This document shows, one piece after another, positions 1-19,668 of a stretch of 37,838 bases of DNA (position 1 is the first letter of the stretch; each line of letters begins with the position of its first letter). Position numbers and translations under genes: made by a program. The stretch lies in the NCBI GenBank assembly GCA_025924295.1, contig JAICEG010000001.1, positions 1-37,838 of the forward strand. The letters are read 5' to 3'. Under the pieces are notes generated by a model. It worked only from the letters and a program-made list of their open reading frames with translations, did no database searches and was not told where the DNA came from. The DNA is from Vicinamibacteria bacterium. GTDB lineage: Bacteria; Acidobacteriota; Vicinamibacteria; Vicinamibacterales; UBA2999.

Positions 1-726
1 CGGCGGGATCATCATGTCGAGGATGCCGTTCAAGGCATCGATCTCCCCCTGGATGCTCCCGCCCTTCGCCATATCGATCACAGGAAAGTGGTTCGTATCG
101 AGGATGTCACCGGTCACAATCACATCGGCGCGCCTGAAGAAGACAATGCTGTCGCCGTTGGAGTGGGCGGCGGGCATGTATATGACCTGGATGCCGTCGC
201 CGTTGAGATACATGGGATAGCTGCGGCCCGTATAGGTCTTCGTTGGCTGCGCCGCAAAGGGAAATGGAGACCCTGGCGCGCTCATGCTGGTGAAGACGTT
301 TTCGTGCGCGAGGACACCGGCCGCCCCACCGCTCGTATAGACCTCCTCGCTCACGCCGCTGCTTCCTTGATGACCCAGAATCGTCTGCCCCGCCTTCGAG
401 AGCCTGTCATTGCCACCGACATGATCGGCGTCGGCGCTGGTGTTGATGACATAGCGAATCGGGCGGTCGGTCAGCCGCTTGACGGCCGCCAGCACCGCGT
501 CTGCCATCTGCGCCGATCCGGTGTCCACGAGAACGACGCCCGCCGGACCGATCTGCGCGGCCACGTTGCCGCCGGCGCCCGCGATCATGTAGAAATCGGG
601 TCGGACCTGCACGACATCCAGAGCGCCGCTGCCCTGCTGCGATGCACGGGCAAGTGGCGCTCCGCTCATCACACCGACTACGACACACAGGGACACCGAG
701 ACACCGAGAATCCTTTGGATAGTCAC
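1..726 (-). CDS. Exported MBL-fold metallo-hydrolase, paralog 1 (C-terminus cut by window edge)
   Basis: Absent from the ORF track because it has no stop inside the window. My minus-strand translation from GTG at 726-724 gives VTIQRILGVSVSLCVVVGVMSGAPLARA (signal-like). It continues ...VLVDTGSAQ...IRYVINTSADADHVGGN...PAAHSNGDSIVFFRRADVIVTGDIL. Colinear with the complete paralog at 18634-19668, and alignable at nucleotide level (61-180 vs 18961-19080). Confidence 0.8.
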   Translation of the reverse strand, partial: MTIQRILGVSVSLCVVVGVMSGAPLARASQQGSGALDVVQVRPDFYMIAGAGGNVAAQIGPAGVVLVDTGSAQMADAVLAAVKRLTDRPIRYVINTSADADHVGGNDRLSKAGQTILGHQGSSGVSEEVYTSGGAAGVLAHENVFTSMSAPGSPFPFAAQPTKTYTGRSYPMYLNGDGIQVIYMPAAHSNGDSIVFFRRADVIVTGDILDTNHFPVIDMAKGGSIQGEIDALNGILDMMIPP

Positions 727-729
727 GCT

Positions 730-1533
730 TCACTTCTTGGTTTCGCCCGTCAGCGGGTTGAAGCCGGGAATCGTGTGCACGCCGTATTGATTGTTCTCCT
801 GGCAGATGTATTCCATCAGCTCGTCCCCGGGCGGGCTGAGCGTCGCCATGAAGGTCACCGTGAACGGCTTCGTGAAGGCGCCAGGGTCGTCGATGGTCAC
901 CTTGTTCTCCATGCGGCCGAGATCCAGGCGCGTCCATCGCTCAATGGTGTGCAGTTGCTCGCTGTGAGGAGTCCCGCGGCGGTCGAACCAGAACTTGTCG
1001 TTGTAGCCGACGGTATCGATGACGAGCGTGTCTTTCTCCCACCATCCGATCGAGTGGCCATACCAGGTCGGGTCGGGATCGGGAGGGTGCTTGCGCCCAT
1101 CCATGAACACCTGCCGGTAGCTATGGATGTTGCCCTCTTGCAGGATGAAGAGGTGAGTCGCAGCCTTGTGTGTGGGCGTCTGCACCATGCGAAACGGAAA
1201 CGGCGTCGTTCGCGGCACGCCCATCGGGAGACAGCGATTGTGCGGCTCCTGGGTGACGTCCCTGGTGGCCATGAGCGCTTTCGCTGAAGGGAGCATCAGC
1301 GCGTCGAGCTCGCCGGGCTTGAGCCCTCCTTCGCGTTCGATGTCGTTGATGGGACCGCCACCGACCCAGACGCCGCTGAGATCGATGGTCCCGTCCGGCA
1401 AACGTGGGACGGGACCCGACGGAGGTCCCGCGCGCCGCTGAGTGCTGATCGATGACTGGCCCTGTTCCGGTGTTTGTGCCGACAGCACAAATGTCGTCAG
1501 AGCCAGTGCCGAGATGAGGAAGGTAGTTCTCAC
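730..1533 (-). CDS. Secreted protein of unknown function, WEG family subtype C (C1)
   Basis: 267-aa ORF with signal peptide MRTTFLISALALTTFVLSAQ. Ordered motifs IDLSGVW, NRC, FMDGRKHP, GWWEKDTLVIDT, IDDPGAFTKPF and EYICQENN are shared with 2363-3187 and 14362-15399. 3-nt gap to the MBL start. Confidence 0.85.
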   Translation of the reverse strand: MRTTFLISALALTTFVLSAQTPEQGQSSISTQRRAGPPSGPVPRLPDGTIDLSGVWVGGGPINDIEREGGLKPGELDALMLPSAKALMATRDVTQEPHNRCLPMGVPRTTPFPFRMVQTPTHKAATHLFILQEGNIHSYRQVFMDGRKHPPDPDPTWYGHSIGWWEKDTLVIDTVGYNDKFWFDRRGTPHSEQLHTIERWTRLDLGRMENKVTIDDPGAFTKPFTVTFMATLSPPGDELMEYICQENNQYGVHTIPGFNPLTGETKK

Positions 1534-1553: not shown

Positions 1554-1940
1554 TTACTGGTCCGCCGTGCCGGAGAACACCTTGCGTCCGTCAGGGAGTA
1601 CAACCGATCGCGCGTTCGCGATAGGTGCGCCCGACCTCGCGTGGAACCCGTCGACGGTCACCGTATCACCCACTTTGAGCGCGTTTCTCGTCCAACCGTT
1701 CCGCGCGAGCGCGCTGACGGCGGCCAGCTCGACGTTCCAGTTGACGACCGTCCCGTTCGGCTGCGCGACGTCGATGTAGATCCGGGCATGCGGATTGGTC
1801 CATTCGATCCTGGTCACGCTCCCCTTCAACATCACCGTTTTCGATGTGTCGAACTCCCCCGCAATCGAGTGATGGGCGGGGAGCGCTCGGGATCCGCAGA
1901 GAACGATGGCGACGAGAAGGAACGCGAATGTCAATCTCAC
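1554..1940 (-). CDS. Small exported protein, DUF6152-like (copy a)
   Basis: 128 aa. Signal peptide ends ...RALPA, followed directly by HHSIAGEF. Has a WTNPH motif. The size and HHS...NPH pattern match my recollection of the DUF6152 family. Tandem paralog of 1962-2342. Confidence 0.8.
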   Translation of the reverse strand: MRLTFAFLLVAIVLCGSRALPAHHSIAGEFDTSKTVMLKGSVTRIEWTNPHARIYIDVAQPNGTVVNWNVELAAVSALARNGWTRNALKVGDTVTVDGFHARSGAPIANARSVVLPDGRKVFSGTADQ

Positions 1941-1961: not shown

Positions 1962-2342
1962 TCACTCCCAGCGGCCGACCGTCCTCCCGTCCTCGAACTT
2001 TGCACCGACGAAGCCGCCAGCCGGCGCACCATTGATCATCGGCCGCAGGCGCATCGTCACTTTCGCGCCGGGCGGAAACGTCGACGGACGGATGCCCTGG
2101 CGGCCGAGCGAATTGGGACTTCCCCACTCGACGCTCCACTCCACCTTCGCGCCCTTGTCGTCCTCGACGATGATCTGGATCCACGTGTGGGGATTGGTGA
2201 ACTGGAACTCCTTGATCGTTCCAGTCAGCTCGATCACCTTGTCGCTATTGAACCCCGCCCCCGAGTGATGCGCGGTGACCGGCGCACCTGCCGCGAGCAG
2301 TGCGGCGAACGCGAGAGCCCCGAGAAGCGCGTGCGTCCTCAT
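1962..2342 (-). CDS. Small exported protein, DUF6152-like (copy b)
   Basis: 126 aa. Signal peptide ends ...APVTA, followed by HHSGAGF. Has an FTNPH motif. Alignable along its whole length with 1554-1940. Confidence 0.8.
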   Translation of the reverse strand: MRTHALLGALAFAALLAAGAPVTAHHSGAGFNSDKVIELTGTIKEFQFTNPHTWIQIIVEDDKGAKVEWSVEWGSPNSLGRQGIRPSTFPPGAKVTMRLRPMINGAPAGGFVGAKFEDGRTVGRWE

Positions 2343-5646: not shown

Positions 5647-6065
5647 GCGACGCCGCGGACCCCACGGTGTTCGTAGTCGATGACGATGCGTCGCTGCGAT
5701 TCGCGCTGCAGCGGCTGTTCCGCTCGTCCGGGTGGTCGGTGCAGACGTTCTCGTCGGCCGAGGAATTCCTCGAGCAGCCGCGCGACGACGCTCGCGCCTG
5801 TCTCATTGCCGATGTTCACCTTGGCCGCATGAGCGGACTGGAGCTCCTGGCGATTGTGGTGCGAACGCCGGCCGCCCTGCCGGCGATTCTGATCACCGGC
5901 TTCGATGGCGGCGTCACCGAGACCGAAGCGCTCCGCCTGGGTGCGTTCGCGTTCTTCCGCAAGCCATTCGATGCCTTCGAGCTGCTGCGCTGTGCGAGGC
6001 GCGCAGTCGAGCGCGGAACACCCACCCTCCAGGGCAAGCCTGCCGCGAACCTGCCCCGTTCCTGA
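5637..6065 (+). CDS. Single-domain response regulator (CheY-like receiver, no output domain)
   Basis: C-terminal part of track ORF 4824-6065. The GTG at 5637 overlaps the kinase stop at 5644-5646. Receiver motifs VFVVDDD, LIADVHLGRMSG, ILITG and FFRKPF. Only about 142 aa, so there is no room for a DNA-binding domain. Confidence 0.8.
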   Translation: MELSDAADPTVFVVDDDASLRFALQRLFRSSGWSVQTFSSAEEFLEQPRDDARACLIADVHLGRMSGLELLAIVVRTPAALPAILITGFDGGVTETEALRLGAFAFFRKPFDAFELLRCARRAVERGTPTLQGKPAANLPRS

Positions 6066-7769
6066 TTACCTGGTCGCCGTCGACCGCTCCCCCGCCGCGG
6101 CGTCGTAGACGACCCGGCCCCCGACGATCGTCAACACCGACGTGATGTCCTTGATCTGATCCGCTGGCACGGTCAGGTAGTCCTTGTCGGTCACGACGAG
6201 ATCGGCAAACCGGCCTGCCTGAATCGAGCCGAGATCGTTCTCGCGGAAGAACAGGTATGCGTTGTTCCGCGTGTGCGCGATCAACGCGGCCTCACGGCTG
6301 ACCGTATGCGTATTGACCACCGTCCCGCCGACCATCTTGCCGGTCACCGCGAAATACAACATCTGGAAGGGCCGGAACTGATTGACCTCGAAGGCATCTG
6401 TTCCGAATCCCCACATGATGCCGCTCTCCTGGATCTCGCGCATGGGCGGCATGGCGTTGCCCTTGTCCCCCTGGATGCGATGGAGCAGCCCGCCTGACAC
6501 GATCGGACGCGGGTTGAGAGCAATGAACATGTTGAGCTTCTTCATGCGCTCGATCTGTGACGGGGTCACACCTTCCATGTGCATGAACGACCACCGGAGC
6601 GGGCGCAGGTTGACCTCTTTGCTGATCTTCTCGAGCTGCGTGAGCTGTTCGCCAATCGCGATTTCGGTGACCGAGTGGAGTTGCACGGGAATGCCAGCCT
6701 TGGCGGCCGCGAGCGCGAAGCGGCCCCATGCGTCCCACACTTCCGGCGCTGCGATAGGTTCGGGACCGGGCGCGATGACGTCTCCGCCGCCACCACCGGG
6801 GAACCGCTCACCGTAGTTCGAGTTGTCCATCCACTCGTCGCCGTCGTGGAAGCGAAGCGAGGGAAGCTGCGCGATCATCTTCTCCTGCGCGCCGGCGCCA
6901 CGTCCCCCGCCGGGCACGGTCTTCTGGCAGAAGAAGCGCATGCTCGCGGTACCTTCCTTCTGGAACTGGCGGTAGAGGTCTTCCCACAGGCACTGGCCAC
7001 CCGACGCGGTCAAACCGGCCTTGGCGAGATCCCTGAGCATGACCTTCTGACTCGCGATGATGACGTCCATCGGCAGATTGGCCTTGCCTCCGTTGGGCGC
7101 GTCGAGGAACCCGGCCTGGTCGAACAGCGTGTTGCGGCCGGCGACACCGGTGATGCCGGTCGCCCGCCCGTTCGCGTCGCGCTCGATCCACGGCTCCTTG
7201 CGCTGCTCGAGCTTGAGCTCCTCGATCGCCTTGCTGTTGAGGTACTGCGCCGACCGCGTGAACTGGAGGAAGACGGGATTGTTCGGGGATACCTTGTCCA
7301 GCTCGTCGCGGGTGAACGGCTTCTTGTCGTCGGTGAACTGATCGGGCGACCAGCCCCCGAGGTTGAACACCCACTTGCCGGCGCCGACTTCCTTCGCCTT
7401 GGCGCGGATCATCTCGAGCGCCTGCTTGCGCGAGTCGACGCCGTCGAAGCGCAATTCGAGTGTCCAGTAGGCGCCTTCTTCCTGGAAGTGCGCGTGGTTA
7501 TCGATGAGCCCCGGCACCACGGATCGGCCGCGCAGGTCGATGCGGCGCGTGTTCGGCCCAGCCAGGCGTGTGATGTTCTGATTCGTCCCCACGGCCACGA
7601 TGCGGTCGCCACGGATCGCGACGGCCTGGGCGATCGAGAACTGATCGTCAACCGTGATGATCTTGCCGTTGGTGAGGATCATGTCTGCCGGCGCCGGCTG
7701 CTGTGCGTAGACCGACAACATGCCCACCGTCACCACGGCTACCACGAACGCCGACACCCAATATCTCAT
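6066..7769 (-). CDS. Exported amidohydrolase family protein (Amidohydro_3 / YtcJ-like), copy 1
   Basis: ORF 6066-7802 trimmed to the ATG at 7769 (MRYWVSAFVVAVVTVGMLSVYAQ; GGAGA 7 nt upstream). Motif PGLIDNHAHF. Alignable over its full length with 7823-9496. Confidence 0.85.
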   Translation of the reverse strand: MRYWVSAFVVAVVTVGMLSVYAQQPAPADMILTNGKIITVDDQFSIAQAVAIRGDRIVAVGTNQNITRLAGPNTRRIDLRGRSVVPGLIDNHAHFQEEGAYWTLELRFDGVDSRKQALEMIRAKAKEVGAGKWVFNLGGWSPDQFTDDKKPFTRDELDKVSPNNPVFLQFTRSAQYLNSKAIEELKLEQRKEPWIERDANGRATGITGVAGRNTLFDQAGFLDAPNGGKANLPMDVIIASQKVMLRDLAKAGLTASGGQCLWEDLYRQFQKEGTASMRFFCQKTVPGGGRGAGAQEKMIAQLPSLRFHDGDEWMDNSNYGERFPGGGGGDVIAPGPEPIAAPEVWDAWGRFALAAAKAGIPVQLHSVTEIAIGEQLTQLEKISKEVNLRPLRWSFMHMEGVTPSQIERMKKLNMFIALNPRPIVSGGLLHRIQGDKGNAMPPMREIQESGIMWGFGTDAFEVNQFRPFQMLYFAVTGKMVGGTVVNTHTVSREAALIAHTRNNAYLFFRENDLGSIQAGRFADLVVTDKDYLTVPADQIKDITSVLTIVGGRVVYDAAAGERSTATR

Positions 7770-7775
7770 CGTGAT

Positions 7776-7806
7776 TCTCCAGGTCCGGCTGAAGCCGGAC
7801 ACTACG
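7776..7806. repeat. 31-nt hairpin-containing intergenic repeat, copy 1
   Basis: Sequence TCTCCAGGTCCGGCTGAAGCCGGACACTACG. A 7-bp GC stem (7783-7789 pairing with 7794-7800) encloses a 4-nt loop. 30/31 identical to 23831-23861. Lies between the upstream stop (7823) and the downstream RBS/ATG (7769) on the minus strand. Confidence 0.85.
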
Positions 7807-7822: not shown

Positions 7823-9496
7823 TTACTGCGTCGACGTCGTCGGCGACGATTCGTAGACGACCCGCCCGCCGACCATCGTCATCACCGGCTTGATGTCCTT
7901 GATCTGATCAGCCGGGATCGTCAGGTAATCACGATCGATCACCACGAGATCGGCAAGCTTGCCGGACTGTATCGAGCCGAGGTCGTTCTCGCGGACGAAG
8001 AAATACGCGTTCTTGCGCGTGTGTGCGATGAGCGCGTCTTCGCGATCGATCGGCTGATGGTTGACGACCTTGCCACCGACCATCTTGCCGGTCACTGCCC
8101 AATACAGCGTCATGAACGGACGATACTGGTTGACCTCGAACGCGTCGGTCCCAAAGCCCCACTGGATCCCGCTGTCCTGGATCGCCTTGAGCGGCGGCAT
8201 CGAGTAGCCGCGCTCACCGCGCCGACGAATGAACGCGGCGCCTGAGATCACACCACGAGGGTGCACACCAATGTACATCCCCAGCCGCTTCATGCGCTCG
8301 ATCTGCGGCGGGGTCACGCCTTCCATGTGCACGAACGACCAGCGCAGGTGCCGGATCGGCATCTCCTTCGCGATCTGCTCGACCTGACGAAGCTGCTCCT
8401 CGACGGTCCACTCCATCGTCGTGTGGATGAAGATCGTGATCCCGGCCTTCGCCGCCGCGCGCGCCATCTGTCCCCAGCTCGCCCACAGCTCCGGCGGCGC
8501 CGTCGGCTTCGTGTCGTTGATGGTGTCCGGGGTGTTGACCAGGCGCTCGCCCCAGTTGACGTGATCGATCCACTCGTCGCCATCGAAGTAGCGCAGCTTC
8601 GGAATCGCGGCGATGACCTGGTCCACGCCTCCGCCACGTCCACCGCCCCCGGCAGTTCGGAAACAGAAGAACCGCATGCTCAGGCGATTCTCACGTTGCC
8701 ACTGACGATAGATGTCTTCGTACTGACATCCACCACCCGACGATGTGAGGCCGGAGCTGTTGAGATCCCTGAGCATCTGCATGCTGCTCGACTCGAAGAT
8801 GTCTTTCGGCAGTTCCTTGAGGAAGCCGGCAGCGTTTCGAATCTGCCCTGTGCCCCCATCGCCGTTGATGACGCCGGTCGGCCGGCCGTTCGAGTCACGC
8901 ACGACCCAGGGCTCGTTGATCTTGTCCATCCCGGTCGCTTCGATCGCGCGGCTGTTCACGAAGGTCTGCTCGCGCGTGAACTGCAGGAAGACCGGATTGT
9001 TCGGCGCGATCTTGTCGAGCTCTTCCCGTGTGAACGGGCGCGGATCATCCGCGAACTGGTCCGGCGACCAACCACCCAGCGTGAACACCCACTGTCCCGG
9101 CCCCTTGACCTTGGCGCGCTCTCGGATCATCTCGGCAGCCTGCTTGCGCGACTCGACACCGTCGAGACGGAGCTCGAGCTGCCAATAGGCGCCCTCTTCC
9201 ATGAAGTGGCCGTGGTTGTCGATGAGCCCGGGTGTGACCGCGCGCCCGCGCAGGTCGATGCGACGAGTCTTCGGACCTGCCAGCTTCGTGATCTCCGCGT
9301 TTGTGCCAACGGCCGAGAAGCGATCGCCGGTCACAGCCACCGCCTGCGCAATACTGAAGCGATCGTCGACGGTGATGATCTTGCCGTTGACGAGAATCGT
9401 GTCGGGGGCGGCCGGCTGCTGGGCGTACATGACGGACGCGCCCGCCAGTGCCAACATCGCTGCCGCCACAGAGCCCTTCCAAATCGTCCGTGGCAT
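7823..9496 (-). CDS. Exported amidohydrolase family protein (Amidohydro_3 / YtcJ-like), copy 2
   Basis: 557 aa with signal peptide MPRTIWKGSVAAAMLALAGASVMYAQ. GGAGG lies upstream of the ATG at 9496. Motif PGLIDNHGHF. Tandem paralog of 6066-7769. Confidence 0.85.
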   Translation of the reverse strand: MPRTIWKGSVAAAMLALAGASVMYAQQPAAPDTILVNGKIITVDDRFSIAQAVAVTGDRFSAVGTNAEITKLAGPKTRRIDLRGRAVTPGLIDNHGHFMEEGAYWQLELRLDGVESRKQAAEMIRERAKVKGPGQWVFTLGGWSPDQFADDPRPFTREELDKIAPNNPVFLQFTREQTFVNSRAIEATGMDKINEPWVVRDSNGRPTGVINGDGGTGQIRNAAGFLKELPKDIFESSSMQMLRDLNSSGLTSSGGGCQYEDIYRQWQRENRLSMRFFCFRTAGGGGRGGGVDQVIAAIPKLRYFDGDEWIDHVNWGERLVNTPDTINDTKPTAPPELWASWGQMARAAAKAGITIFIHTTMEWTVEEQLRQVEQIAKEMPIRHLRWSFVHMEGVTPPQIERMKRLGMYIGVHPRGVISGAAFIRRRGERGYSMPPLKAIQDSGIQWGFGTDAFEVNQYRPFMTLYWAVTGKMVGGKVVNHQPIDREDALIAHTRKNAYFFVRENDLGSIQSGKLADLVVIDRDYLTIPADQIKDIKPVMTMVGGRVVYESSPTTSTQ

Positions 9497-9510: not shown

Positions 9511-10302
9511 TCAGCGGGGTTCGTCGGCTTTACAGGGCGTGGGATCCCATCCCTGGCGATCGGGGATTTTCTTGAACGGAACCGTCGACGTGTACGGCTG
9601 GGTCAGATACTTCGGATCCGTCACGATCGTCGTGGCGAGGAGCCACGTATCACCGTTGGGCTCGGTGAAGGTGTCGAAGTACTCGTCCACGGACGCGTCC
9701 TCGCTGTAGGGGACGCCGTTCCTGCGCAGGTAGCCCCCGGTCATGCGGGTCGTGCGCACGCGCAGTTGCCCCGTCCCCTTCGGGACCGCACCACCGCGGC
9801 CGCGGGAGCCAAGAAATTCCCAGGACGCGACCGAGTAGCCCTGGAGTTGCGGAGCCTGCCCGGCCGGTGCCGGGGCACCGAATCTGAGGGTTCGTGTCTG
9901 CGTGCCGGCGTCGGTGTCGAGTTGCAGCGTGTTGTCGTCAACCCAGTGGAAATGCACACGGCCCGGCACGCGCATCAAGGCAGGCGGGCCATAGGCCTTG
10001 CATTGATCGGGTTCCGCTTTCGATTTACCGAGGTCCCACGTATCGGCGATCTTGCGCGCTTCGGGCGTGAGCGGCAGCATGCTGTAGTCACCTTTCGGTG
10101 GGACCAGCATCCGCAGGTGCCAATGCTCGGTGACGATCGACACCCAATAGCCCGTGAAGTCTTTCGGTGCCGCCGCGCGCGCAGTGGGCGGCGGTCCGGC
10201 CGCGGCGCCACGCCCGCGCCCCTGTCCCTGCGCCAGTACGGCGGACGCGCCGGCCAGACTCAACACGAGCGCGACAGCGGTGAGGTAAGCGACGGGCCTC
10301 AT
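9511..10302 (-). CDS. Secreted protein of unknown function, WEG family subtype B (B1)
   Basis: ORF 9511-10353 trimmed to the ATG at 10302, which overlaps the MBL stop as ATGA. Signal peptide MRPVAYLTAVALVLSLAGASAVLAQ. Motifs DFTGYW, QCKAYG, LQLDTDAGTQTR, ASWE, LRVRTTRMTGGYLRRNGVPYSED, VTDPKYLTQPY and WDPTPC. Close paralog of 17882-18637. Confidence 0.85.
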   Translation of the reverse strand: MRPVAYLTAVALVLSLAGASAVLAQGQGRGRGAAAGPPPTARAAAPKDFTGYWVSIVTEHWHLRMLVPPKGDYSMLPLTPEARKIADTWDLGKSKAEPDQCKAYGPPALMRVPGRVHFHWVDDNTLQLDTDAGTQTRTLRFGAPAPAGQAPQLQGYSVASWEFLGSRGRGGAVPKGTGQLRVRTTRMTGGYLRRNGVPYSEDASVDEYFDTFTEPNGDTWLLATTIVTDPKYLTQPYTSTVPFKKIPDRQGWDPTPCKADEPR

Positions 10303-11363
10303 TTCTTGCTCAAGCTCGCAAATGCTGCTTCGACGAACATGTCGGTCGTCCACGCACCCGTGGTGCTTCCATAGCGGCCGTCATAGTCGCGCGTCGGTCG
10401 CGCGGCTTTCACCTGTGCCAGCGTCATGCCCTTGTCGATCATGTCCTGGATGCGATCGCGAACGATGTACAGCATGTCGCGGTAGTACGCGACCTCGGCG
10501 TGATCGGCAATGCGCCCGTGACCAGGAACGATCAGCGTGCCCCCGGCACCATGTGACTCAGGGACACACAGATCGATCAGCTTGTTGAGGCTGGTCACGA
10601 AGGCCTGGATGCTGCCGCCGGCTTTGAGATCGATCTGCGGGTAGCGCGTCAGGTCGATGAGGTCGCCGGTGCTGATGACATCGGACTTGCGGAAGAACAC
10701 GACGGTGTTGCCGTCGGTGTTTCCCGGGAGGTTCATCATCACGACGGGCTCGTCGTTGAAGTAGAACCGCTTCTGATCGATCGCGTAGGTATTGTCCGGC
10801 CACGAGTCGGGTGGAGTCGGAGACTTCTGGCCCGTGGGCGCCGACATCCGGTTGAGCACGTTCTGATGCGCCACAACCGATGCGCGGTTGTATTGGATCG
10901 TTCCCTGCGGACCAGCCGTGTAGTTCGCGTCGCGCAGCGGAACGGTCTCCCCCTTGCCCGCGATTACGGCATTGCCGCCCGTGTGCTCGGGATGCTCGGT
11001 CGTGTTGATCACATAACGAAGCGGCTTGCGTGGCGGGGCGATGCGCTGCACCGCAGCCCATACCTTGTCGCTCATCGAGGCGATGCCGGTATCGACGAGG
11101 AGGATGCCCTGCTCTCCCGTCTGCACGGTGACGTTGCCACCGGCGCCGATGATGACGGACACCTGGCCCCGTACGGGGAGGACCTCAACCTCCCCGGCTG
11201 CTGGTTCTTCCAGTTTGGGCGGCCAGACCTGTTTCTGGCCTGCCCCCTGAGCAGCCTGGGTGTAGACCCGCTCGGCGGGGATCAGCAGCGCGAACACGAA
11301 CGCCGCCGCTACGCAGGCGAGCAGCAGACGCGACGCGGGTAGATGACGATGAAGTGGCTTCAA
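10299..11363 (-). CDS. Exported MBL-fold metallo-hydrolase, paralog 2 (divergent ligand motifs)
   Basis: 354 aa. TTG start at 11363 overlaps the upstream stop as TTGA. N-terminus MKPLHRHLPASRLLLACVAAAFVFALLIPA. Fold motifs ILLVDTGIAS, RYVINTTEHPEHTGGN (10974-11003), LPGNTDGNTVVFFRKSDVISTGDLI and IVPGHGRI. Confidence 0.8.
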   Translation of the reverse strand: MKPLHRHLPASRLLLACVAAAFVFALLIPAERVYTQAAQGAGQKQVWPPKLEEPAAGEVEVLPVRGQVSVIIGAGGNVTVQTGEQGILLVDTGIASMSDKVWAAVQRIAPPRKPLRYVINTTEHPEHTGGNAVIAGKGETVPLRDANYTAGPQGTIQYNRASVVAHQNVLNRMSAPTGQKSPTPPDSWPDNTYAIDQKRFYFNDEPVVMMNLPGNTDGNTVVFFRKSDVISTGDLIDLTRYPQIDLKAGGSIQAFVTSLNKLIDLCVPESHGAGGTLIVPGHGRIADHAEVAYYRDMLYIVRDRIQDMIDKGMTLAQVKAARPTRDYDGRYGSTTGAWTTDMFVEAAFASLSKK

Positions 11364-12382: not shown

Positions 12383-13435
12383 CTAGACGCCACCCCTTCC
12401 ACGGCCTCCCGGCCGCTGCAGCGCAAAATTCACGACCGCATCAGCCTTCGCGGTCGGCTTCGCATAGGCGACCGTCCCGCGCGGAACCGCGTCCGCCGCA
12501 GGAGTGCCCGACAGCGTGATGGTGAAGTTCTGATGCTCGTGCGCCACGAGCTGGGGCACGCGCCACACGGCCACATCGGCGTTCGACTTCTCGTCCTTCC
12601 GGGTGCCCTGATATCCGGTGCCTGTTGCCGACACGGCCTTGGTGCCGTCCGGCAGCGTGAGCGTGATCGTCAGATCCTCGGCGGTCAGCCCCTTGTCCCT
12701 GAGCCCCTCGTTCTCGACTTCCAGGGTGTAGGTCGTGCCGGTCGCGGATGGTTGTCCGCCGGTGAGCCGGGCGACGAGCGGGACCACCATTCCGAGCTCG
12801 TTCATCCAGTCCCAGATTTCCTTGAGCTGCGATTCGGGCACTCGTCTGGGCGAGAAATTGCCCATCCGCACCCGGCCGCGCTGCCGTTCGGCGTCGAGCT
12901 GCTTCCACTGTTCCGGCATCACGGTCGCGTGGTTGTAGACCTGCTTCTTGAACCACTCGAAGTCGGCATTCATCCCGGCGGCGCCGTGGCGAGGTGTGCT
13001 CATCGTGTTCCCGTGACACTGTCCACACCCGAGGATGTTCACGGCGAGCTGCTGCGCGCGCGGGCCGGTTGCCGGCGCCTCGTTCCGCCACTTCCCGATC
13101 GCCGGGGCGAACGGCAGCGTGTTCCAGTAGGTGACCATGTCGAGGATTTCCTTGTCGCTCAGCTGCGACGGCACGAAAGCAGGCATCCTCCACATCGGAT
13201 TCCTGATGGCCGCGACGGCCTGGTCGTAGGTGATCCTCCGCCCGGCGAGATCCGGTCCCCATCCCCCCTGTGCCTCGAGGCCGTGGCAATTCGTGCAGGA
13301 CGTATTGCCGAAGGCGAACACGGCTTTGCCGTTGGCGGGATCGCCAACCGCCTGCGCCGCATTCTGGGCAGCGCCGGTGTCCGCCTGGGCAACGGCAAGC
13401 ACGAGCATGACGAGGGCGAACAGAGTTGTACGCAT
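12383..13435 (-). CDS. Exported diheme c-type cytochrome with extra C-terminal beta-rich domain
   Basis: ORF 12383-13510 trimmed to the ATG at 13435 (MRTTLFALVMLVLAVAQA). Two CXXCH heme motifs were checked codon by codon: CTNCH at 13283-13297 and CGQCH at 13013-13027. The C-terminal ~130 aa (TYTLEVENEG...TITLTLPDGT...NFTITLSG) has no heme motif. Confidence 0.85.
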   Translation of the reverse strand: MRTTLFALVMLVLAVAQADTGAAQNAAQAVGDPANGKAVFAFGNTSCTNCHGLEAQGGWGPDLAGRRITYDQAVAAIRNPMWRMPAFVPSQLSDKEILDMVTYWNTLPFAPAIGKWRNEAPATGPRAQQLAVNILGCGQCHGNTMSTPRHGAAGMNADFEWFKKQVYNHATVMPEQWKQLDAERQRGRVRMGNFSPRRVPESQLKEIWDWMNELGMVVPLVARLTGGQPSATGTTYTLEVENEGLRDKGLTAEDLTITLTLPDGTKAVSATGTGYQGTRKDEKSNADVAVWRVPQLVAHEHQNFTITLSGTPAADAVPRGTVAYAKPTAKADAVVNFALQRPGGRGRGGV

Positions 13436-13649
13436 AGTCGGTGCCTCAGCTTGGTGGGTGCGTTTGCGATTCGCGCACCGGAGCGTAAAGCACAGTGGCC
13501 AGACTGTCAAACAGGTATATCACCGGCCTTCGCCAAGGCTACGGCCGGCAGGCCCGCCTCTTTGCCAGGCTTCGGGGAGGCAGCCATCTAGCGGCCGGTC
13601 TTTTTAGACCGCCGTGTGCTACAGTCCGCGCTGCCTGACGGAGGGTCAC

Positions 13650-14243
13650 ATGATCGGACGACTGCTCGTCTTCCTCCTCGCCTTTGGCGCCATCACCGCC
13701 ACGGCGCAGCAGCCAGCAGCGCCAGCACAGGGCGCACGTGCTCCCCAGCCACCGAGATTACGCCTGACGAGCCCCGGCTTCCCGGACGGCGCGAGCCTGC
13801 CTCTGCAGTTCACCTGCTACGCCGAGGGCGCCACGCCCGGATCTCCTCCGCTCCGGTGGACGAACGTGCCCAAGGAGACCGCGAGCTTCACGCTGATGGT
13901 GAACGGTCCCGACAATCATCCGGCCAAGGGCATCACCGAAGAGATGTTCTGGGTGCGCTGGAACATTCCACCGACCGCGACTGAGATACCTGCGGGAGTT
14001 CCGGTCGGCGCGTCGCTGCCCGACGGCAGCCGGCAGGTTGCCGGTGGACGCGGCATCGTGGGGTATCGACCGCCATGCGCGCCGGCGGGCGTGGGACCGC
14101 TTCACTATCAGTTCAAGCTGTATGCGCTCGACCAGATGTTGACGCTGCCGCCTGAGGCCACGCGTGCCGACGTCATGAAAGCCATGGACGGCCACATCGT
14201 CGGAACCAGCACCTACTACGCGTTCCTCGACAGGATGCCTTGA
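13650..14243 (+). CDS. Exported YbhB/YbcL-type PEBP (Raf-kinase-inhibitor-like) family protein
   Basis: ORF 13614-14243 trimmed to the ATG at 13650 ([21 protein letters not shown]). PEBP signature GPDNHP...WVRWNIP...[23 protein letters not shown]. Confidence 0.8.
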
Positions 14244-14361: not shown

Positions 14362-15399
14362 TCATCGTTCTTCAGCCCTGGCGCCGCCAAGGATGCCGCG
14401 CACGACGTGATGGTTGCCTTCGTGACACGCGAACTCCTGCAGGCGCTCGTCGGTCGACTTCAATCGAATGAGCGCCGTCCACGGCTTCGTCCACGTCGCC
14501 GGGTCATTGAATGTGAGCTCGTAGTCGAGCGTGGTCGGACTCGTTCGTGTGAAGCGCTCGACGAGATGCAGACCGTCGGCCGATCCCATGAAGAAACTCT
14601 TCGCCGAGAAGTTCGTCGTCTCGACGACGAGCGTGTTTCCTTCCCAGCGCCCACGTGAATCTCCGTTCCATTGACGCAGAGGCGATGGCAGATGCGGGCG
14701 CCCGTCCACCGGGATGACGCGCGCCTCGTGGTTCACCTCGCTCAGGAACACCACGTATCCAGGTCCCTGCACGATCTGGTGATAGCCGGTGTAGTTGATG
14801 TTGCCGGCAATCTTGGGCACGCCCCAGCTGACGCAACGAAGGACGTTGCTCAGATCCTCCGGACCGTTCAGCACTCGAACGGGGGCTGCCGTGGCCGTAG
14901 ACGCTCCACCAAACTGCCACGGCGTCGTCACGTTCGACGCGAGTCCTTCGAGTTGGCGACGACGTCCCTCCGGCGTGACTGGTGGCAGACGCCCATCAGG
15001 AGGATCCGTGATGAGTGAAGTGCGGTTGTCGAATTCCCGCGGCACCATGTTGAACACATTGCCTGTCGCATTCGGATTCTCGACCACGTCGGCATTGGCC
15101 CACAACGCCATGAAGAGGTTGTCACCGGGAATGAAGTCGCTCGCGGGATTGTTGAAGAGCCGCTCGGCTCGCAGTTTCAGCTGAGCGACTTCCGCGTCGG
15201 TCAGGACCTTGCGGTCCGCCAACGCTTTCGGCCGCTCGAGCGGCGTGATGCTGGTATCGGTCCAGACGCCCTGAAGGTCGGGCTGGCCATCCGGCGTGCG
15301 CGGCGGTGTCCCACCCTGCGCGGCCACGGAAACGGGGACCAGAATCGCGATCGCGATTGCGACCGATCGGACGAGCGAGAACGGCTGGCCTTGGAGCAT
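14362..15399 (-). CDS. Secreted protein of unknown function, WEG family subtype C (C3)
   Basis: 345 aa with signal peptide MLQGQPFSLVRSVAIAIAILVPVSVAAQ. Motifs DLQGVW, LRCVSWGVP, PVDGRPH, GRWEGNTLVVETT, FNDPATWTKPW and FACHEGN. Confidence 0.85.
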   Translation of the reverse strand: MLQGQPFSLVRSVAIAIAILVPVSVAAQGGTPPRTPDGQPDLQGVWTDTSITPLERPKALADRKVLTDAEVAQLKLRAERLFNNPASDFIPGDNLFMALWANADVVENPNATGNVFNMVPREFDNRTSLITDPPDGRLPPVTPEGRRRQLEGLASNVTTPWQFGGASTATAAPVRVLNGPEDLSNVLRCVSWGVPKIAGNINYTGYHQIVQGPGYVVFLSEVNHEARVIPVDGRPHLPSPLRQWNGDSRGRWEGNTLVVETTNFSAKSFFMGSADGLHLVERFTRTSPTTLDYELTFNDPATWTKPWTALIRLKSTDERLQEFACHEGNHHVVRGILGGARAEER

Positions 15400-15510: not shown

Positions 15511-15960
15511 ATGACGCGAGCGATGCTGGCTGGGGTGTTGGCGCTGACAGTGATAAGTGTGTCGCCACTGGCACAGAGCAAGACCGCAACGGTGGCAATC
15601 TACAAGACGCCAACCTGCGGCTGCTGCTCGCTCTGGGTCAAGCATCTCCAGCAGCACGGCTTCACGACCAAGGTCACCGACATGGACAGCGTGGACGAGG
15701 TGAAGAACACCAACGGCGTCCCGCGCCAGGCGCGCTCGTGCCATACCGGGATCGTCGATGGCTACGTCATCGAAGGACACGTGCCTGCCGCCGACATTCA
15801 GCGACTGCTGAAGGAACGTCCGCGCGGCGTGATCGGCCTTGCCGTACCCGGGATGCCCATCGGATCACCGGGCATGGAAGTGCAGGGCATGTCGGCGCAG
15901 CAGTACAACGTGCTGGCGTTCGACAAGAGCGGACAGACGACTGTCTTTGCGAAACATTGA
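15511..15960 (+). CDS. Exported DUF411 / CopG-like metal-binding protein
   Basis: 149 aa with signal peptide MTRAMLAGVLALTVISVSPLAQS. CxCC motif TCGCCS (codons 15616-15627). Motifs SCHTGIVDGYVIEGHVP and GLAVPGMPIGSPGME are typical of DUF411. GGAGGAG precedes the ATG. Confidence 0.8.
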   Translation: MTRAMLAGVLALTVISVSPLAQSKTATVAIYKTPTCGCCSLWVKHLQQHGFTTKVTDMDSVDEVKNTNGVPRQARSCHTGIVDGYVIEGHVPAADIQRLLKERPRGVIGLAVPGMPIGSPGMEVQGMSAQQYNVLAFDKSGQTTVFAKH

Positions 15961-16105: not shown

Positions 16106-16999
16106 TCACCGTCGATAGCGAGACATTTTCTCGAGCACGGCACACACCGCGGCCGTGTCTTCGTCGTGCCTCGTCTTCACTGCGTCAGCGTAGATTGGCG
16201 CGGTCGTCGAGAACAGCGGCGTAGCGCTGCCCACACTCTTCGCGAACTCCGCGATGATCGCCATGTCCTTCTGCCAGGTGCCGAGCGTCATCGTCGCCTT
16301 CCGGTAGCTCCCCTTCACCATCATTGGACCGCGCAACTGGAGGACGCGTGAGCTGCCGGCTCCTTCACTGACCAGCTTCAGGACCCTTGCCGGATCGAGT
16401 CCCGCCTTCATCGCGAGGACAAGTGCTTCGGCCGCGGCCACGTTGTGGATGGCGACGAGCAGGTTGGCGACGAACTTCACTTTCGAGCCGTCGCCAAATG
16501 GGCCAACGTAGTAATGCGCGCGGGTGAAGCCATCGAGCACTCTCGCGACCCGGCGATAGGCTGCACGCGCGCCGCTGGCATAGACGACGATGTCCTTGTT
16601 GCGCGCCTGCGCACCCGTGCCGCTGATGGGACAGTCCAACAGCTCAATGCCACGCGCGCGCAGGGCCCTGCGGGCGCGCTCCTTCACCTCGATCGACAGC
16701 GTGCTGGTTTCAACCACGATCTGTGGCGGACGTTCCGTCTGCGCGAGAGCGGACACGGTCTCGGTCAGCGCATCTGCGGATGGCAGCGAGGTGATGACGA
16801 TACGAGACAGATTACCGAGGTCGGTGCTGCTCTTCGCGGGTGATCCTCCGGCCGCCCGAAGCTGACGCAGGCTCGCGGCCCGGACGTCGTATCCCACAAC
16901 GCGATGGCCCGCACGGATCACATGACCGGCAATTGCCGACCCCATGATCCCCAGACCGATCACCCCGATCGAGGGTGAAGCCGGTGTTTTCGATTTCAT
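16106..16999 (-). CDS. NAD(P)-dependent beta-hydroxyacid dehydrogenase family protein (3-hydroxyisobutyrate dehydrogenase-like), cytoplasmic
   Basis: ORF 16106-17053 trimmed to the ATG at 16999, 4 nt after the upstream stop. Rossmann motif IGVIGLGIMGSAIAG. Mid-domain motif ISGTGAQARNKDIVVYASG. No signal peptide. Confidence 0.8.
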   Translation of the reverse strand: MKSKTPASPSIGVIGLGIMGSAIAGHVIRAGHRVVGYDVRAASLRQLRAAGGSPAKSSTDLGNLSRIVITSLPSADALTETVSALAQTERPPQIVVETSTLSIEVKERARRALRARGIELLDCPISGTGAQARNKDIVVYASGARAAYRRVARVLDGFTRAHYYVGPFGDGSKVKFVANLLVAIHNVAAAEALVLAMKAGLDPARVLKLVSEGAGSSRVLQLRGPMMVKGSYRKATMTLGTWQKDMAIIAEFAKSVGSATPLFSTTAPIYADAVKTRHDEDTAAVCAVLEKMSRYRR

Positions 17000-17003
17000 T
17001 GAA

Positions 17004-17900
17004 TTAGCGGATTGGCGGCGCCCCACAGTTGCGAGTGCATGGCGCGGGCGCAACGTACTTGTCCCTGATCGTCTTTCGATATTCGGGATAGAGCGTCTCC
17101 GCTCGGCCGATCACGACGTCGCGCGGCAGCCCGAACATCTTCGTGAGCTCGTCGACGAACGGGTTCTTCTCGGGCAGGAAGTGCGGCGTGCTCTCACCGA
17201 GCGGACGGCCCTCGAACGTCGAGACGCACGGAGGACCGATCGGCGAGATCGGTGCGGTTGAGAGCTGGAAGCTCTTCGAGATGATGTGCGGCTCGGCAAG
17301 GTAGATCGGATCCTCGATCACCGTCAGCACAGTCAGGATGTCGCCGTGCCGGAAGAAGCGCGAGGTCATCGTCGCCTGATCGCTCGTCGGCGGCCCATTC
17401 TTCCGCAGGAAGCCGGCTTTCATGTGCGTCGTGCGGGCCACGAGCACATTGCCTTCCCACGCGCCGGTGGTGAAACCACCGCGTGTGTGTTCGGCGTACT
17501 TCGAGGGGTGCGGCCGGCCGTCCATCCAGATCGTCATCGGCGCGCGATCCTCCCACGCGCCGATCGTGAACGAGATGGCGGTGCCTTTGACCGGCTCGGT
17601 CTCGCTCCAGATGCGCAGCCCGAAGGGTCCCTGGACGAAGTAGAACTGCGGCCATCCCTCGCACTGCCGCTCGATCATCGCCAACTGCGATTCGTTGTAG
17701 GCGAGTGCGCGCGTTCGCCCTTCATCGTTGAGCGGGAGACCGACGTAGTCGACGGGATACGAGTCACGCGAGATGTCTTCGGTGTTGCGTGCCGCCCACG
17801 ACCCGGTCAGCTCGACCTGGGCGAAGGCGCTCGTAGACCACGCAGCACACAGCAGCGCGACGAGCGCGGCGCGTCGCAACGTCACCATCTGGTCGAACAT
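17004..17900 (-). CDS. Secreted protein of unknown function, WEG family subtype A (A2)
   Basis: ORF 17004-18173 trimmed to the ATG at 17900 (alternative ATG at 17888). Signal peptide (MFDQ)MVTLRRAALVALLCAAWSTSAFAQ. Motifs ELTGSW, RQCEGW, IWMDGRPHP, GAWEGNVLVARTTHMKAGFLRKNGPPTSD, IEDPIYLAEPH and PPCVS. Start overlaps the upstream stop. Confidence 0.8.
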   Translation of the reverse strand: MFDQMVTLRRAALVALLCAAWSTSAFAQVELTGSWAARNTEDISRDSYPVDYVGLPLNDEGRTRALAYNESQLAMIERQCEGWPQFYFVQGPFGLRIWSETEPVKGTAISFTIGAWEDRAPMTIWMDGRPHPSKYAEHTRGGFTTGAWEGNVLVARTTHMKAGFLRKNGPPTSDQATMTSRFFRHGDILTVLTVIEDPIYLAEPHIISKSFQLSTAPISPIGPPCVSTFEGRPLGESTPHFLPEKNPFVDELTKMFGLPRDVVIGRAETLYPEYRKTIRDKYVAPAPCTRNCGAPPIR

Positions 17901-18637
17901 GGCGTGGGATCCCATTTGGAACCGTCCGCTTCCTTCTTGAAGTGCGAGCTGACGATGAACGGCTGCGTGAGGTACTGCGGATCGTCGACCACGGTGGTCA
18001 CGACGAGCAGCTGACCACCGGGCGACGGCGACACATCGAAGTACTCGGTCAGGTTCGCGTTGGCACTGTAGGGAACGCCGTTCTTCCGCAGATAACCAGC
18101 GCGCATGTTCCTGGTCGTCACCGTCAGCGATCCGCTCGTCGGTGCACCACCACGGCCGCCACCCCGCTCCCACTGCGCCGTGGAGTCACCCTGCCACGTC
18201 GGCTTGCCACCAGCGGGCCCGCCGGGCGCAAACCTGAACAGCCGCGTCTGCGTGCCGGCATCGATGTCGACGCGCAGCGTGCTGTCGTCCTGCCACGTGA
18301 TGTTGAGCCGCGCGGGAAGACGCATGACGGCAGCGGCGCCGTACGACTTGCACTGCTCACCCGCCGCTTCGTCCGCGCCCGGGTCCCAGGAGTTGACGAT
18401 CTGAAGCGCTGCCTTGGTAATGGGCACGCCGCGGTAATCACCCTTGGGTGGCGTCACCATCCGATAGCGCCAGTCTTCGTTGATGACTGCCACCCAGTAG
18501 CCGGTGAGATCGATTGGCGCCGATGCCCGCGCCGACGGCGGCGCCGCGCCGCCACCGCGAGCTTGCGCTGCCGCACCGATTGGTGTCAGGCAGTGAATCG
18601 TGAACAGGAGGGCGGTCGACAGCCGGTAGACGTTCAC
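17882..18637 (-). CDS. Secreted protein of unknown function, WEG family subtype B (B2)
   Basis: ORF 17882-18844 trimmed to the GTG at 18637, which overlaps the MBL stop as GTGA. Signal peptide (M)NVYRLSTALLFTIHCLTPIGAAAQA. Motifs DLTGYW, QCKSYG, LRVDIDAGTQTR, AQWE, LTVTTRNMRAGYLRKNGVPYSAN, VDDPQYLTQPF and WDPTPC. Confidence 0.8.
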   Translation of the reverse strand: MNVYRLSTALLFTIHCLTPIGAAAQARGGGAAPPSARASAPIDLTGYWVAVINEDWRYRMVTPPKGDYRGVPITKAALQIVNSWDPGADEAAGEQCKSYGAAAVMRLPARLNITWQDDSTLRVDIDAGTQTRLFRFAPGGPAGGKPTWQGDSTAQWERGGGRGGAPTSGSLTVTTRNMRAGYLRKNGVPYSANANLTEYFDVSPSPGGQLLVVTTVVDDPQYLTQPFIVSSHFKKEADGSKWDPTPCSTRW

Positions 18638-19668
18638 TTCTTCGCTCGCGGGAGGCTGTTGTAGATCGCCTCGATGAAGTTGTTGGTCGAACCAGATTCC
18701 GCGCCGTATCGCCGTGTGTAGCCGCGCGCCGGCGACGCCGCCTTTGCCTGGTCGAGCGTCATGCCCGCGTCCCTGAGATCCCTGACTCGATCGCGAACGA
18801 TGCTGACCATGTCGCGGTACTCCACGACGTCGAGCTGATCGCACAGCCGGCCATGCCCCGGGATGATGACCGTGCCAGCCTCGCGCGAGACGATCGGCAC
18901 TGATGGAATGGCGAGATCGATCAGGCGGTTGAGCGCCGCAATCTCGCCCTCGATCGAGCCGCCGCGTGCGACGTCGATCACCGGAAAGCGCGTCGTATCG
19001 AGAATGTCACCGGCCACGACCACATCCGAGCGACGGAAGAACACCATCGAGTCGCCATCGGTGTGCGCAGCGGGCTGATGGAAGATCTCAATCCCCTCGC
19101 CGTTGAGAAACATGTACTTGCGGGCGTGATCGAACGTCTCGGTCGGCCACGCCGCAGCCGGATATGGCGACGCCAGTCCCGTGGGTGCGCTCATCCTCGA
19201 CAGCACTTTCTCCGCCGACAGGATCGATGCGACACCTTCCAGGAAGTTGCCTGGCAAGCCGAACGATCCCGCGTTGGTGAACAACGTCTGGCCCGCCTTG
19301 GAGAGCGTCTCGTTGCCACCGACGTGATCCGGATCGGCGCTGGTGTCGATGATGTAGCGAATCGGACGTGGCGAGAGCTTCTGAATCGCGGCCAGCACGT
19401 TGGCTGCCGACGCCGCTGACCCCGCGTCGACCACCACGACGCCGTCCTCTCCGATCTGGACACCGATGTTGCTGCCGGCGCCGCCGATCATGAAGAAGTT
19501 CGGTCGCAGCTGCAGGACTTCGAGCCCGCCCGGGGCGGCGACGCTCGTCTGGCCACCGCTGGTCTGCAAACCCTGCGGTGCTGCGGTGAGGTTGACGGAT
19601 GGGCCGGTCAACACGAGGCTCGCGAGCGCAACGAGGAGGCCTGCACGCAGTCCAGGTTCGGTGAACAC
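18634..19668 (-). CDS. Exported MBL-fold metallo-hydrolase, paralog 3
   Basis: 344 aa with a GTG start at 19668. Hydrophobic N-terminus LLVALASLVLTG. Fold motifs VVVVDAGSAAS, RYIIDTSADPDHVGGN (19315-19344, checked codon by codon), PAAHTDGDSMVFFRRSDVVVAGDIL and IIPGHGRL. Confidence 0.85.
   Translation of the reverse strand: MFTEPGLRAGLLVALASLVLTGPSVNLTAAPQGLQTSGGQTSVAAPGGLEVLQLRPNFFMIGGAGSNIGVQIGEDGVVVVDAGSAASAANVLAAIQKLSPRPIRYIIDTSADPDHVGGNETLSKAGQTLFTNAGSFGLPGNFLEGVASILSAEKVLSRMSAPTGLASPYPAAAWPTETFDHARKYMFLNGEGIEIFHQPAAHTDGDSMVFFRRSDVVVAGDILDTTRFPVIDVARGGSIEGEIAALNRLIDLAIPSVPIVSREAGTVIIPGHGRLCDQLDVVEYRDMVSIVRDRVRDLRDAGMTLDQAKAASPARGYTRRYGAESGSTNNFIEAIYNSLPRAKK

Follow-up and report, generated by a model that had tools for sequence, protein, structure and literature searches.

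Seven minus-strand genes in a 37,838-nucleotide stretch of contig JAICEG010000001.1 from a Vicinamibacteria bacterium (assembly GCA_025924295.1; the whole stretch is hereafter called the window) encode exported proteins that sequence comparison places in one family with three subtypes, A, B, and C. The family occurs in two conserved modules, namely, a triad consisting of a gene for a metallo-β-lactamase (MBL)-fold protein followed by one B gene and one A gene (MBL-B-A), and an association of C genes with genes for DUF6152 proteins. What was observed directly is that the proteins belong to one family and carry export signals and that their genes are coupled, lie in conserved synteny, and are in some cases fused; the system is a real and widespread periplasmic one. 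Our preferred reading, which we hold with somewhat more confidence than doubt, is that A and B form a barrel heterodimer on a remodeled MBL subunit and that C and DUF6152 form a separate module.

Seven proteins form one family with three subtypes

The original prediction had grouped the seven proteins (A1, A2, B1, B2, C1, C2, and C3; Table 1) by an ordered set of short motifs. We compared them pairwise by BLASTP and phmmer and, using clean subtype alignments made from database homologues, by profile–profile comparison. The pairwise E values within subtypes were approximately 1e-70 for B1 and B2, 1e-41 for A1 and A2, 1e-20 for C1 and C2, and 1e-18 for C1 and C3, and those between subtypes were approximately 1e-13 for A2 and B2 and 1e-9 for A1 and C1. 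The A and B profiles matched with a probability of 99.4% (E value of 5.6e-21) over 188 columns, the A and C profiles with a probability of 98.2% (E value of 3.4e-14), and the B and C profiles with a probability of 96.4% (E value of 1.4e-9) over 186 columns. Because these pairwise and profile statistics are significant, we conclude that the seven proteins are one family by common descent and that the subtypes A, B, and C are real, as had been proposed; a chance resemblance of motifs among the seven proteins is excluded by the same statistics. No further paralogue was detected by a BLASTP/phmmer search of the remaining window.

The motifs on which the grouping had been based correspond to the invariant columns of a seven-way alignment, which are G..W, P, G, WE, L, T, DP, P, and a C-terminal Cys. 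Every protein has two conserved Cys residues, one approximately 70 to 100 residues into the sequence and the other just past the last strand. All seven N-termini consist of a basic residue followed by a hydrophobic stretch (Kyte–Doolittle values of 1.8–2.7) ending in A-x-A or AQ; these signal peptides were called from hydropathy and by eye. Both the signal-peptide-like N-termini and the Cys pair were found in all seven proteins, in agreement with the prediction. The DGR(P/K)H motif, which had been assigned to A and C and not to B, shows this split in the window and also in database members, where it is present in 166 of 210 A proteins, 122 of 130 C proteins, and 0 of 134 B proteins.

A HMMER scan of 1.84 billion cluster representatives retrieved 18,307 family clusters (50% identity) at an E value of ≤1e-3, 9,911 at ≤1e-10, and 924 at ≤1e-30. 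Every source name among the family matches inspected was "hypothetical protein." When the seven proteins were searched against Pfam (2025 copy) and NCBIfam (2026), none had a match at the cut-off, and six had no match at all at an E value of ≤1; C3 gave one sub-threshold match to DUF5789 (E value of 0.19; 12.2 bits versus a cut-off of 21.7 bits). PDB sequence searches with single proteins and with three different profiles gave no match. Among 141 diverse representatives scanned against Pfam, no Pfam family matched over the domain of the barrel family (see below for the predicted fold); Lactamase_B was the only recurrent match (11 members, which are fusion proteins), and the remaining Pfam families were few, with one or two members each. 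These searches turned up no known family that might have been overlooked, and the family remained unassignable, as the original prediction had stated, with only weak fold matches in the PDB. The matches and loci were almost all from Acidobacteriota (Vicinamibacterales, Bryobacterales/Bryobacteraceae, and Terriglobia), which makes a Vicinamibacterales origin of the window the most likely one. Subtype C also has members on Novosphingobium, Sphingobium, Croceibacterium, and Sinorhizobium plasmids, and their RefSeq name is likewise hypothetical.

A and B genes are linked to an MBL-fold gene

A scan for the B-type pattern in one genome per species (GTDB representatives) yielded at least 560 confirmed loci. 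Linkage was counted in the best 80 of these at least 560 loci, in which genes were typed with hidden Markov models made from the window genes. MBL, B, and A lie in this order on the same strand with gaps of <400 bp in 66 of the 80 loci, whereas the order is A-MBL-(DUF6152)-B in six loci and MBL-B plus B-A in one; no adjacent MBL gene was present in the remaining seven, one of which is on a 2.5-kb contig. The predicted linkage to MBL genes in other genomes was thus upheld for A and B (72/80 loci), and gene order, which had been described as shuffled between operons, instead follows two recurrent arrangements, MBL-B-A and A-MBL-(DUF6152)-B. The independent contigs L001, L003, and L085 carry MBL-B-A as well, and L085 is syntenic with the window from approximately 9.5 to 23 kb.

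Natural fusions join the same partners. A-B fusion proteins have approximately 500 residues (P0001–P0007), and A-MBL fusions have approximately 600 residues and make up approximately 23 clusters among the top 149 representatives. Locus L170 (4817–7709) encodes, in this order, an A-MBL fusion, DUF6152, and B. In locus L002, the C-terminus of a MetE-like (Meth_synt_2) protein is fused in frame to a B-type gene (5714–6757); this locus encodes a further A-B fusion as well, and it has a TonB-dependent receptor gene followed by genes for a tannase, an esterase, a cupin, and an FAA-hydrolase.

Across the 66 triads, the mean identity was 0.59 for MBL, 0.59 for B, and 0.54 for A, and the pairwise divergences of the three proteins correlated with one another (r of approximately 0.85), which is consistent with inheritance as a unit. 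The 107 genes flanking the triads showed no dominant family, the most frequent being glyoxalase (6), DctP (4), and ankyrin (4) genes. Because the flanking genes are this heterogeneous, the MBL/A/B triad looks like a self-contained module. The cytochrome c, amidohydrolase, and dehydrogenase genes that accompany the triads in the window are kept only in the close relatives L085, L004, L005, L013, and L045, and an amidohydrolase gene is near the triad in only approximately 9 of the 80 loci. The cytochrome c and hydrolases had been regarded as repeated partners, and this part of the prediction was not borne out, as they are not core parts; we consider the last Amidohydro_3 gene of operon 2 (6066..7802) to be a lineage-specific passenger.

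C genes are linked to DUF6152

A scan of metagenomes for the C-type pattern gave 80 loci, with 87 C genes having enough flanking sequence. DUF6152 was adjacent on the same strand for 34 of the 87 C genes and MBL for none of them, so the predicted MBL linkage did not extend to subtype C; within loci of ≥3 kb, DUF6152 was found in 29 of 52 and MBL in 6 of 52. Arrays of DUF6152 and C genes are present in L084, L086, L114, and L128, and those of L084 and L086 contain a cytochrome gene. On the alphaproteobacterial plasmids, the order is DUF6152, DUF6152, C, and a TonB-dependent receptor in Croceibacterium and C, DUF6152, and a TetR regulator in Novosphingobium (L166, a Novosphingobium humi plasmid), and a C/DUF6152 pair is also on a Sinorhizobium plasmid. 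The plasmid of Sphingobium sp. TomTYG65 (L168, 2356–16699) carries C, DUF6152, C, and DUF6152 within a sulfonate/organosulfur-scavenging cluster, whose other products are TauD, a sulfonate binding protein, and two each of luciferase-like monooxygenases and TonB-dependent receptors. DUF6644 adjoins the C/DUF6152 pair on both sphingomonad plasmids (L166 and L168) and accounts for 2 of 113 flanking genes in metagenomes. Proteins with two C domains in tandem account for 13 clusters among the top 149 representatives, and the largest count given for one of these is 99 members, from Bryobacteraceae. No family dominates among the 113 genes flanking C modules, where pyrroloquinoline quinone (PQQ) dehydrogenases (5) and cytochromes c (4) are the most frequent.

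The DUF6152 proteins of the window pair, L084, L166–L168, and L170 share a predicted cleavage site that would leave a mature N-terminus of His-His-Ser, and they have a conserved NPH motif. The mature N-terminal His-His and the conserved NPH together suggest a putative metal site involving the N-terminal His. The literature searched contains no mention of DUF6152, and its linkage to the C-type barrels is observed here for the first time.

The adjacency of C1 and MBL1 in the window is that of two modules side by side. Locus L039 has the order Amidohydro-C-DUF6152-DUF6152-C-MBL-B-A, which the window order C2-DUF6152-DUF6152-C1-MBL1 matches; MBL1 therefore probably heads a third MBL-B-A unit whose B-A part lies beyond the contig end, with C1 merely juxtaposed.

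Predicted fold and conserved residues

In the AlphaFold2 models of B2 (pLDDT of 75.5; pTM of 0.74) and C1 (pLDDT of 83.8; pTM of 0.78) alike, eight antiparallel strands come after an N-terminal region that is partly helical. A Foldseek search of the two models against the PDB gave nothing at an E value of ≤0.001, so that the structural check proposed earlier found no confident match; the top hits, at E values of 0.02 to 0.3 and target template modeling (TM) scores of about 0.4 to 0.5, were avidins/streptavidin, fatty acid–binding protein (FABP)/CRABP2, NanoLuc, UnaG, and lipocalin-like proteins. The fold may be best described as a divergent calycin-like barrel, with superfamily membership being soft. 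The (D/E)L(S/T)G.W motif lies ahead of the helical segment in all seven proteins and precedes the main barrel strands by approximately 60 residues, and a short strand is predicted at the G.W motif (residues 46–50 in B2 and 55–58 in C1). The mature family protein is probably a Sec-exported barrel of approximately 230 residues clamped by one disulfide.

Diverse representatives of all subtypes keep G-x-W, both Cys residues, an Arg, the G, S, and W of G.S.G.WE, L..T, R..G.P.S, a Glu, and D-P...P. Subtype A additionally has D127-G-R129-x-H131, conserved at 96, 93, 97, and 84%, respectively, together with H138 (92%) and H159 (99%); K161, R167, D174, and R184 are also kept. The DGRxH motif of subtype C is looser (66% for D and 68% for H). 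This number of conserved polar residues is consistent with a specific site and appears to favor it over a greasy carrier pocket. We also considered whether His residues of the A subunit stand in for the missing MBL His116 and His118 in a composite active site, and rejected this after 96 A/MBL pairs showed no clear compensatory pattern. Several proteins contain Gly/Arg-rich low-complexity sequence: a GGRGG-type insertion separates the WE motif from L.V.TT in B1 and B2, A1 terminates in GRGGGGGGGN (window 12250–12277), and the neighboring cytochrome terminates in RPGGRGRGGV.

The MBL partner has an atypical metal site

All three MBL proteins of the window matched Pfam Lactamase_B with 48 to 50 bits (cut-off of 22.7 bits). 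In an alignment of 77 MBL relatives, motif 2 reads T-S-A-D-[PA]-D-H-V-G-G-N instead of HxHxDH, and the canonical metal motif is present in only 5 of the 77 (for example, NTHAHPDH in L002). In MBL-B-A units, His116 occurs in 0 of 65 proteins and His118 in 2 of 65, with mostly Asp or Glu at the latter position. The five ligands D120, H121, H196, D221, and H263 are all kept in 49 of 70 MBL proteins of MBL-B-A units; the corresponding counts are 5 of 11 for the A-MBL arrangement and 6 of 15 for fusions. Phe replaces His121 in 8 of 65 MBL proteins, and Arg263 is found in some lineages. In the window, MBL3 keeps His196, Asp221, and His263, and MBL2 has Asn at the His196 position. In the L170 fusion, almost every metal ligand of the MBL domain is gone (TEGRDY, ANTDGN, and PGRG), and this domain is an apparent pseudo-MBL.

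Given this atypical and eroded ligand set, the conserved activity is unlikely to be that of a classical binuclear-zinc hydrolase; the MBL subunit would be better explained by a site that is mononuclear or rich in carboxylates, or by a role that is mainly structural. The nearest curated models were those of the SoxH-like quinoprotein relay hydrolases TIGR04558 and TIGR04559 (54–85 bits), for which the best scores of the three proteins were 84.5, 61.6, and 69.6 bits, below the cut-offs of 300 and 280 bits. The closest structure was PDB 8d2z, an uncharacterized MBL superfamily protein (E value of 1.5e-10).

Gene organization of the window

The family genes and their neighbors form three minus-strand operons with gene spacings of −19 to +21 bp (Table 1). 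Operon 1 has the order C2, DUF6152, DUF6152, C1, and MBL1 and then reaches the contig end, the MBL1 gene continuing past the window start; operon 2 has the order cytochrome c, A1, MBL2, B1, and two Amidohydro_3 genes; and operon 3 has the order MBL3, B2, A2, and dehydrogenase. The identities of these neighbors agreed with those given in the original prediction when checked by Pfam. The MBL3/B2, A1/MBL2, and MBL2/B1 pairs have 4-bp start/stop overlaps and the B2/A2 pair has a 19-bp overlap, which suggests that the A, B, and MBL genes of the window may be translationally coupled. The cytochrome c gene lies 105 bp upstream of A1, a position kept in the syntenic L085, and its product has a DUF11/CLIPPER-like C-terminal domain. 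The dehydrogenase of operon 3 lacks a signal peptide (cytoplasmic), its NCBIfam matches are under the cut-off, and its true start is probably near 16999.

C3 sits alone with a plus-strand gene on either side, and its position is likewise occupied in L085, L004, L005, and L013. The flanking genes encode a PEBP protein and a DUF411 protein, the latter from a CopG-like, copper-associated family, and both also flank the C3 orthologue in L085. The plus-strand genes of the window further include those for a PAS histidine kinase and an accompanying response regulator and for a tripartite ATP-independent periplasmic (TRAP) DctP binding protein. The longest open reading frame of the DctP gene overlaps MBL3; because its Pfam match begins only with residue 165 and residues 107 to 127 form a Tat-like signal, the true start is probably near 19700, divergent from MBL3. 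The last three entries of Table 1 have no link to the barrel family.

Table 1 Features of the window. Positions are those of the whole stretch; E values are those of the database named.
Feature	Position	Strand	Evidence and remarks
MBL1, exported MBL-fold protein, N-terminal 242 residues	1..726	-	Pfam Lactamase_B 1.1e-12; motif TSADADHVGGN
C1, subtype C, 267 aa	730..1533	-	Homology; no Pfam/NCBIfam match
DUF6152 protein, exported	1554..1940	-	Pfam PF19649 3.8e-30, 104.3 bits (cut-off 27)
Second DUF6152 protein	1962..2342	-	Pfam PF19649 3.7e-27, 94.7 bits (cut-off 27)
C2, subtype C, 274 aa	2363..3187	-	Homology
Exported Amidohydro_3 hydrolase, last gene of operon 2	6066..7802	-	Pfam 3.5e-68
Exported Amidohydro_3 hydrolase, paralogue of the 6066..7802 gene	7823..9496	-	Pfam 3e-75
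B1, subtype B, 263 aa, without DGRxH	9511..10302	-	Homology
MBL2, exported MBL-fold protein, A-MBL-B arrangement	10299..11363	-	Pfam Lactamase_B 3.5e-13; motif TTEHPEH
A1, subtype A, 305 aa	11360..12277	-	Homology; DGRPH; C-terminal extension with ETMYPEY
Diheme c-type cytochrome	12383..13510	-	Pfam Cytochrome_CBB3 6.2e-16; CTNCH, CGQCH
PEBP protein	13614..14240	+	
C3, long subtype C, 345 aa, monocistronic	14362..15399	-	Homology; orthologues P0391–P0404
DUF411 protein	15511..15957	+	
HIBADH/tartronate-semialdehyde-reductase-like NAD(P) dehydrogenase, last gene of operon 3	16106..17053	-	Pfam NAD_binding_2 9.3e-32
A2, subtype A, 298 aa	17004..17900	-	Homology; orthologues 73–95% identical
B2, subtype B, 251 aa	17882..18637	-	Homology; AlphaFold model
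MBL3, exported MBL-fold protein, first gene of MBL-B-A unit	18634..19668	-	Pfam Lactamase_B 1.4e-12; PDB 8d2z 1.5e-10; motif TSADPDH
TRAP DctP protein	19400..20755	+	Pfam match
772-aa protein with two α/β-hydrolase domains	23862..26180	-	
Ser/Thr protein kinase fused to RDD domain	27012..29579	+	
HlyD/AcrB resistance-nodulation-division efflux pair	32901..37249	+	

Proposed mechanism and alternative explanations

We propose that the family members would act as pairs of paralogous barrels in two types of module. In the MBL/A/B module, A, with DGRxH and two near-invariant His residues, would pair as a heterodimer with B, which is without these residues, and the heterodimer would dock on the remodeled MBL-fold subunit to give a three-subunit periplasmic complex; in the C module, C/C pairs would act together with DUF6152. 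The barrels may capture a small periplasmic ligand, possibly delivered via TonB-dependent receptors, and a metal center would then process it; candidates for this center are the retained MBL site 2, the His cluster of A or C, or both, and DUF6152 might serve as a partner for metal or electrons. The physical complex, ligand binding, and catalysis are what we infer. We consider the family and the complex architecture highly probable and the mechanism of ligand capture plus metal processing less likely than not. A further formulation, which we likewise put forward as a possibility that we doubt more than we trust, is that MBL-B-A is a heterotrimeric periplasmic metalloprotein machine, near-universal in several Acidobacteriota orders, with its active center at or from A/B and the MBL as a partly degenerate scaffold, and that C/DUF6152 is its cross-phylum two-component relative, in which the N-terminal His of DUF6152 would handle metal or electrons.

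Several points weigh against the barrel heterodimer on a remodeled MBL. The correlated divergence of the triad proteins is expected from shared phylogeny alone, and the fold matches are under significance, leaving the calycin assignment soft. The MBL of the triad never has His116 and rarely has His118, and further ligands are lost in 25 to 60% depending on the arrangement; with the near-total loss in L170, this suggests that MBL catalysis cannot be the universal activity of the system. Canonical HHDH MBL proteins also pair with HHH A subunits, and there is no compensation between A-subunit and MBL His residues. TonB-dependent receptor genes are found by the modules in L002, L084, L085, L167, L168, and L170 and make up 3 of the 113 genes flanking C modules, so that this association is anecdotal.

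The same erosion of the MBL site (His116 never present, Phe at position 121 in 8/65, and the L170 domain) would be explained if the barrels themselves were metal-dependent enzymes acting through the DGRxH/His cluster of A and C, if DUF6152 were their periplasmic metallochaperone or redox partner, and if the MBL served mainly as a pseudoenzyme scaffold. The conservation of H138 and H159 (92–99%) and of D127 and R129 (96–97%) in A, the His-His N-terminus and NPH motif of mature DUF6152, and the insertion of DUF6152 within the A-MBL-DUF6152-B arrangement all point in this direction. We nevertheless judge it unlikely, since B is wholly without the motif yet is conserved as well as A, the corresponding His of C is conserved at only 68%, Foldseek matched no known calycin-fold metalloenzyme template in the PDB, and 70% of the MBL proteins in MBL-B-A units retain D120, H121, H196, D221, and H263. 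The weak fold likeness to ligand-binding barrels, the many paralogues per genome, and the TonB-dependent receptor genes adjoining the six loci named above could instead indicate noncatalytic, lipocalin/FABP-like carriers that bring a hydrophobic nutrient or cofactor from TonB-dependent receptors to inner-membrane transporters or enzymes. This is improbable in our view, because it leaves the obligatory MBL partnership and the fusions unexplained, and because the many conserved charged and polar residues and the 54 to 59% identity across orders are above what is usual for simple hydrophobic carriers; TonB-dependent receptors are also abundant in these phyla, and adjacency at 3/113 flanks may be chance.

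The modular periplasmic redox or catabolic system of the original prediction, with the cytochrome c, amidohydrolases, and dehydrogenase as working parts, would fit the cytochrome c gene upstream of A1 in the window and L085, the cytochromes within the C/DUF6152 arrays of L084 and L086, the PQQ dehydrogenases and cytochromes c (5/113 and 4/113) that head the C-module flanking genes, and the PQQ-associated SoxH-like hydrolases as the nearest NCBIfam models of the MBL. However, these three kinds of gene are missing from most loci, the dehydrogenase is not exported, and the NCBIfam scores of 54 to 85 bits are far under the cut-offs of 280 to 300 bits, so that we regard this explanation as very improbable. 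The A/B heterodimer on a remodeled MBL, with the separate C/DUF6152 module, remains our preferred reading.

Acidobacteriota rank among the most abundant bacteria of soil, and their periplasmic proteome is mostly unannotated. The present work defines a family of >18,000 sequence clusters that is missing from all curated libraries, with three subtypes and two conserved modules. From seven "hypothetical proteins" it derives two testable proposals, a three-subunit MBL/A/B complex and a C/DUF6152 pair, with natural fusions pointing to which subunits bind each other. DUF6152 gains a first functional context, and plasmid-borne copies of the C/DUF6152 pair make it accessible to study in culturable Sphingomonadales. 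The MBL lineage, in which zinc site 1 is systematically replaced, calls for caution in reading "beta-lactamase" or "hydrolase" from the fold alone. If the metalloprotein-machine formulation were true, it would mean a new enzyme or binding class that is invisible to present annotation.

Comparison with known systems

The barrel domain, the MBL-B-A unit, and the C/DUF6152 pair are not described in Pfam, NCBIfam, the PDB, or the literature searched, and literature searches on 8D2Z, SoxH, and Vicinamibacter gave nothing relevant. We therefore regard the system as an undescribed one built partly from a known fold, although AlphaFold DB or HH-suite might yet tie the barrel to a named DUF. The two small genes of operon 1 are clear members of DUF6152 (PF19649).

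The nearest likeness of the barrels is to calycins (avidin/streptavidin, FABP/CRABP, lipocalins, and NanoLuc), the only folds that the PDB search retrieved, which resemble the small antiparallel up-and-down barrel of approximately eight strands predicted in both models; the window family is exported and probably disulfide-containing and has a G-x-W near the mature N-terminus, ahead of the helical segment. It differs from calycins in showing no sequence or profile similarity to them, in reaching Foldseek E values of only ≥0.02 and TM scores of only approximately 0.45 to 0.5, and in having a helical N-terminal segment of 60 to 100 residues ahead of the barrel. To our knowledge, neither obligate pairing of paralogues nor partnership with an MBL-fold protein occurs among calycins.

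The closest sequence relatives of the partner MBL proteins are the SoxH-like MBL proteins (TIGR04558 and TIGR04559) and 8d2z, which are periplasmic and have approximately 300 to 350 residues. The partner MBL proteins differ from them in scoring 40 to 85 bits against cut-offs of 280 to 300 bits and in having T-S-A-D-x-D-H instead of HxHxDH, and we know of no SoxH-type protein that is encoded with barrel-protein partners. SdsA1-type alkylsulfatases combine an MBL catalytic domain, which has a canonical binuclear zinc site, with an SCP2-like domain that recruits hydrophobic substrates. The accessory domain of SdsA1 is not homologous to the barrels, and the likeness is one of analogy only: as in the A-MBL fusions, an MBL fold is joined to a small ligand-binding module.

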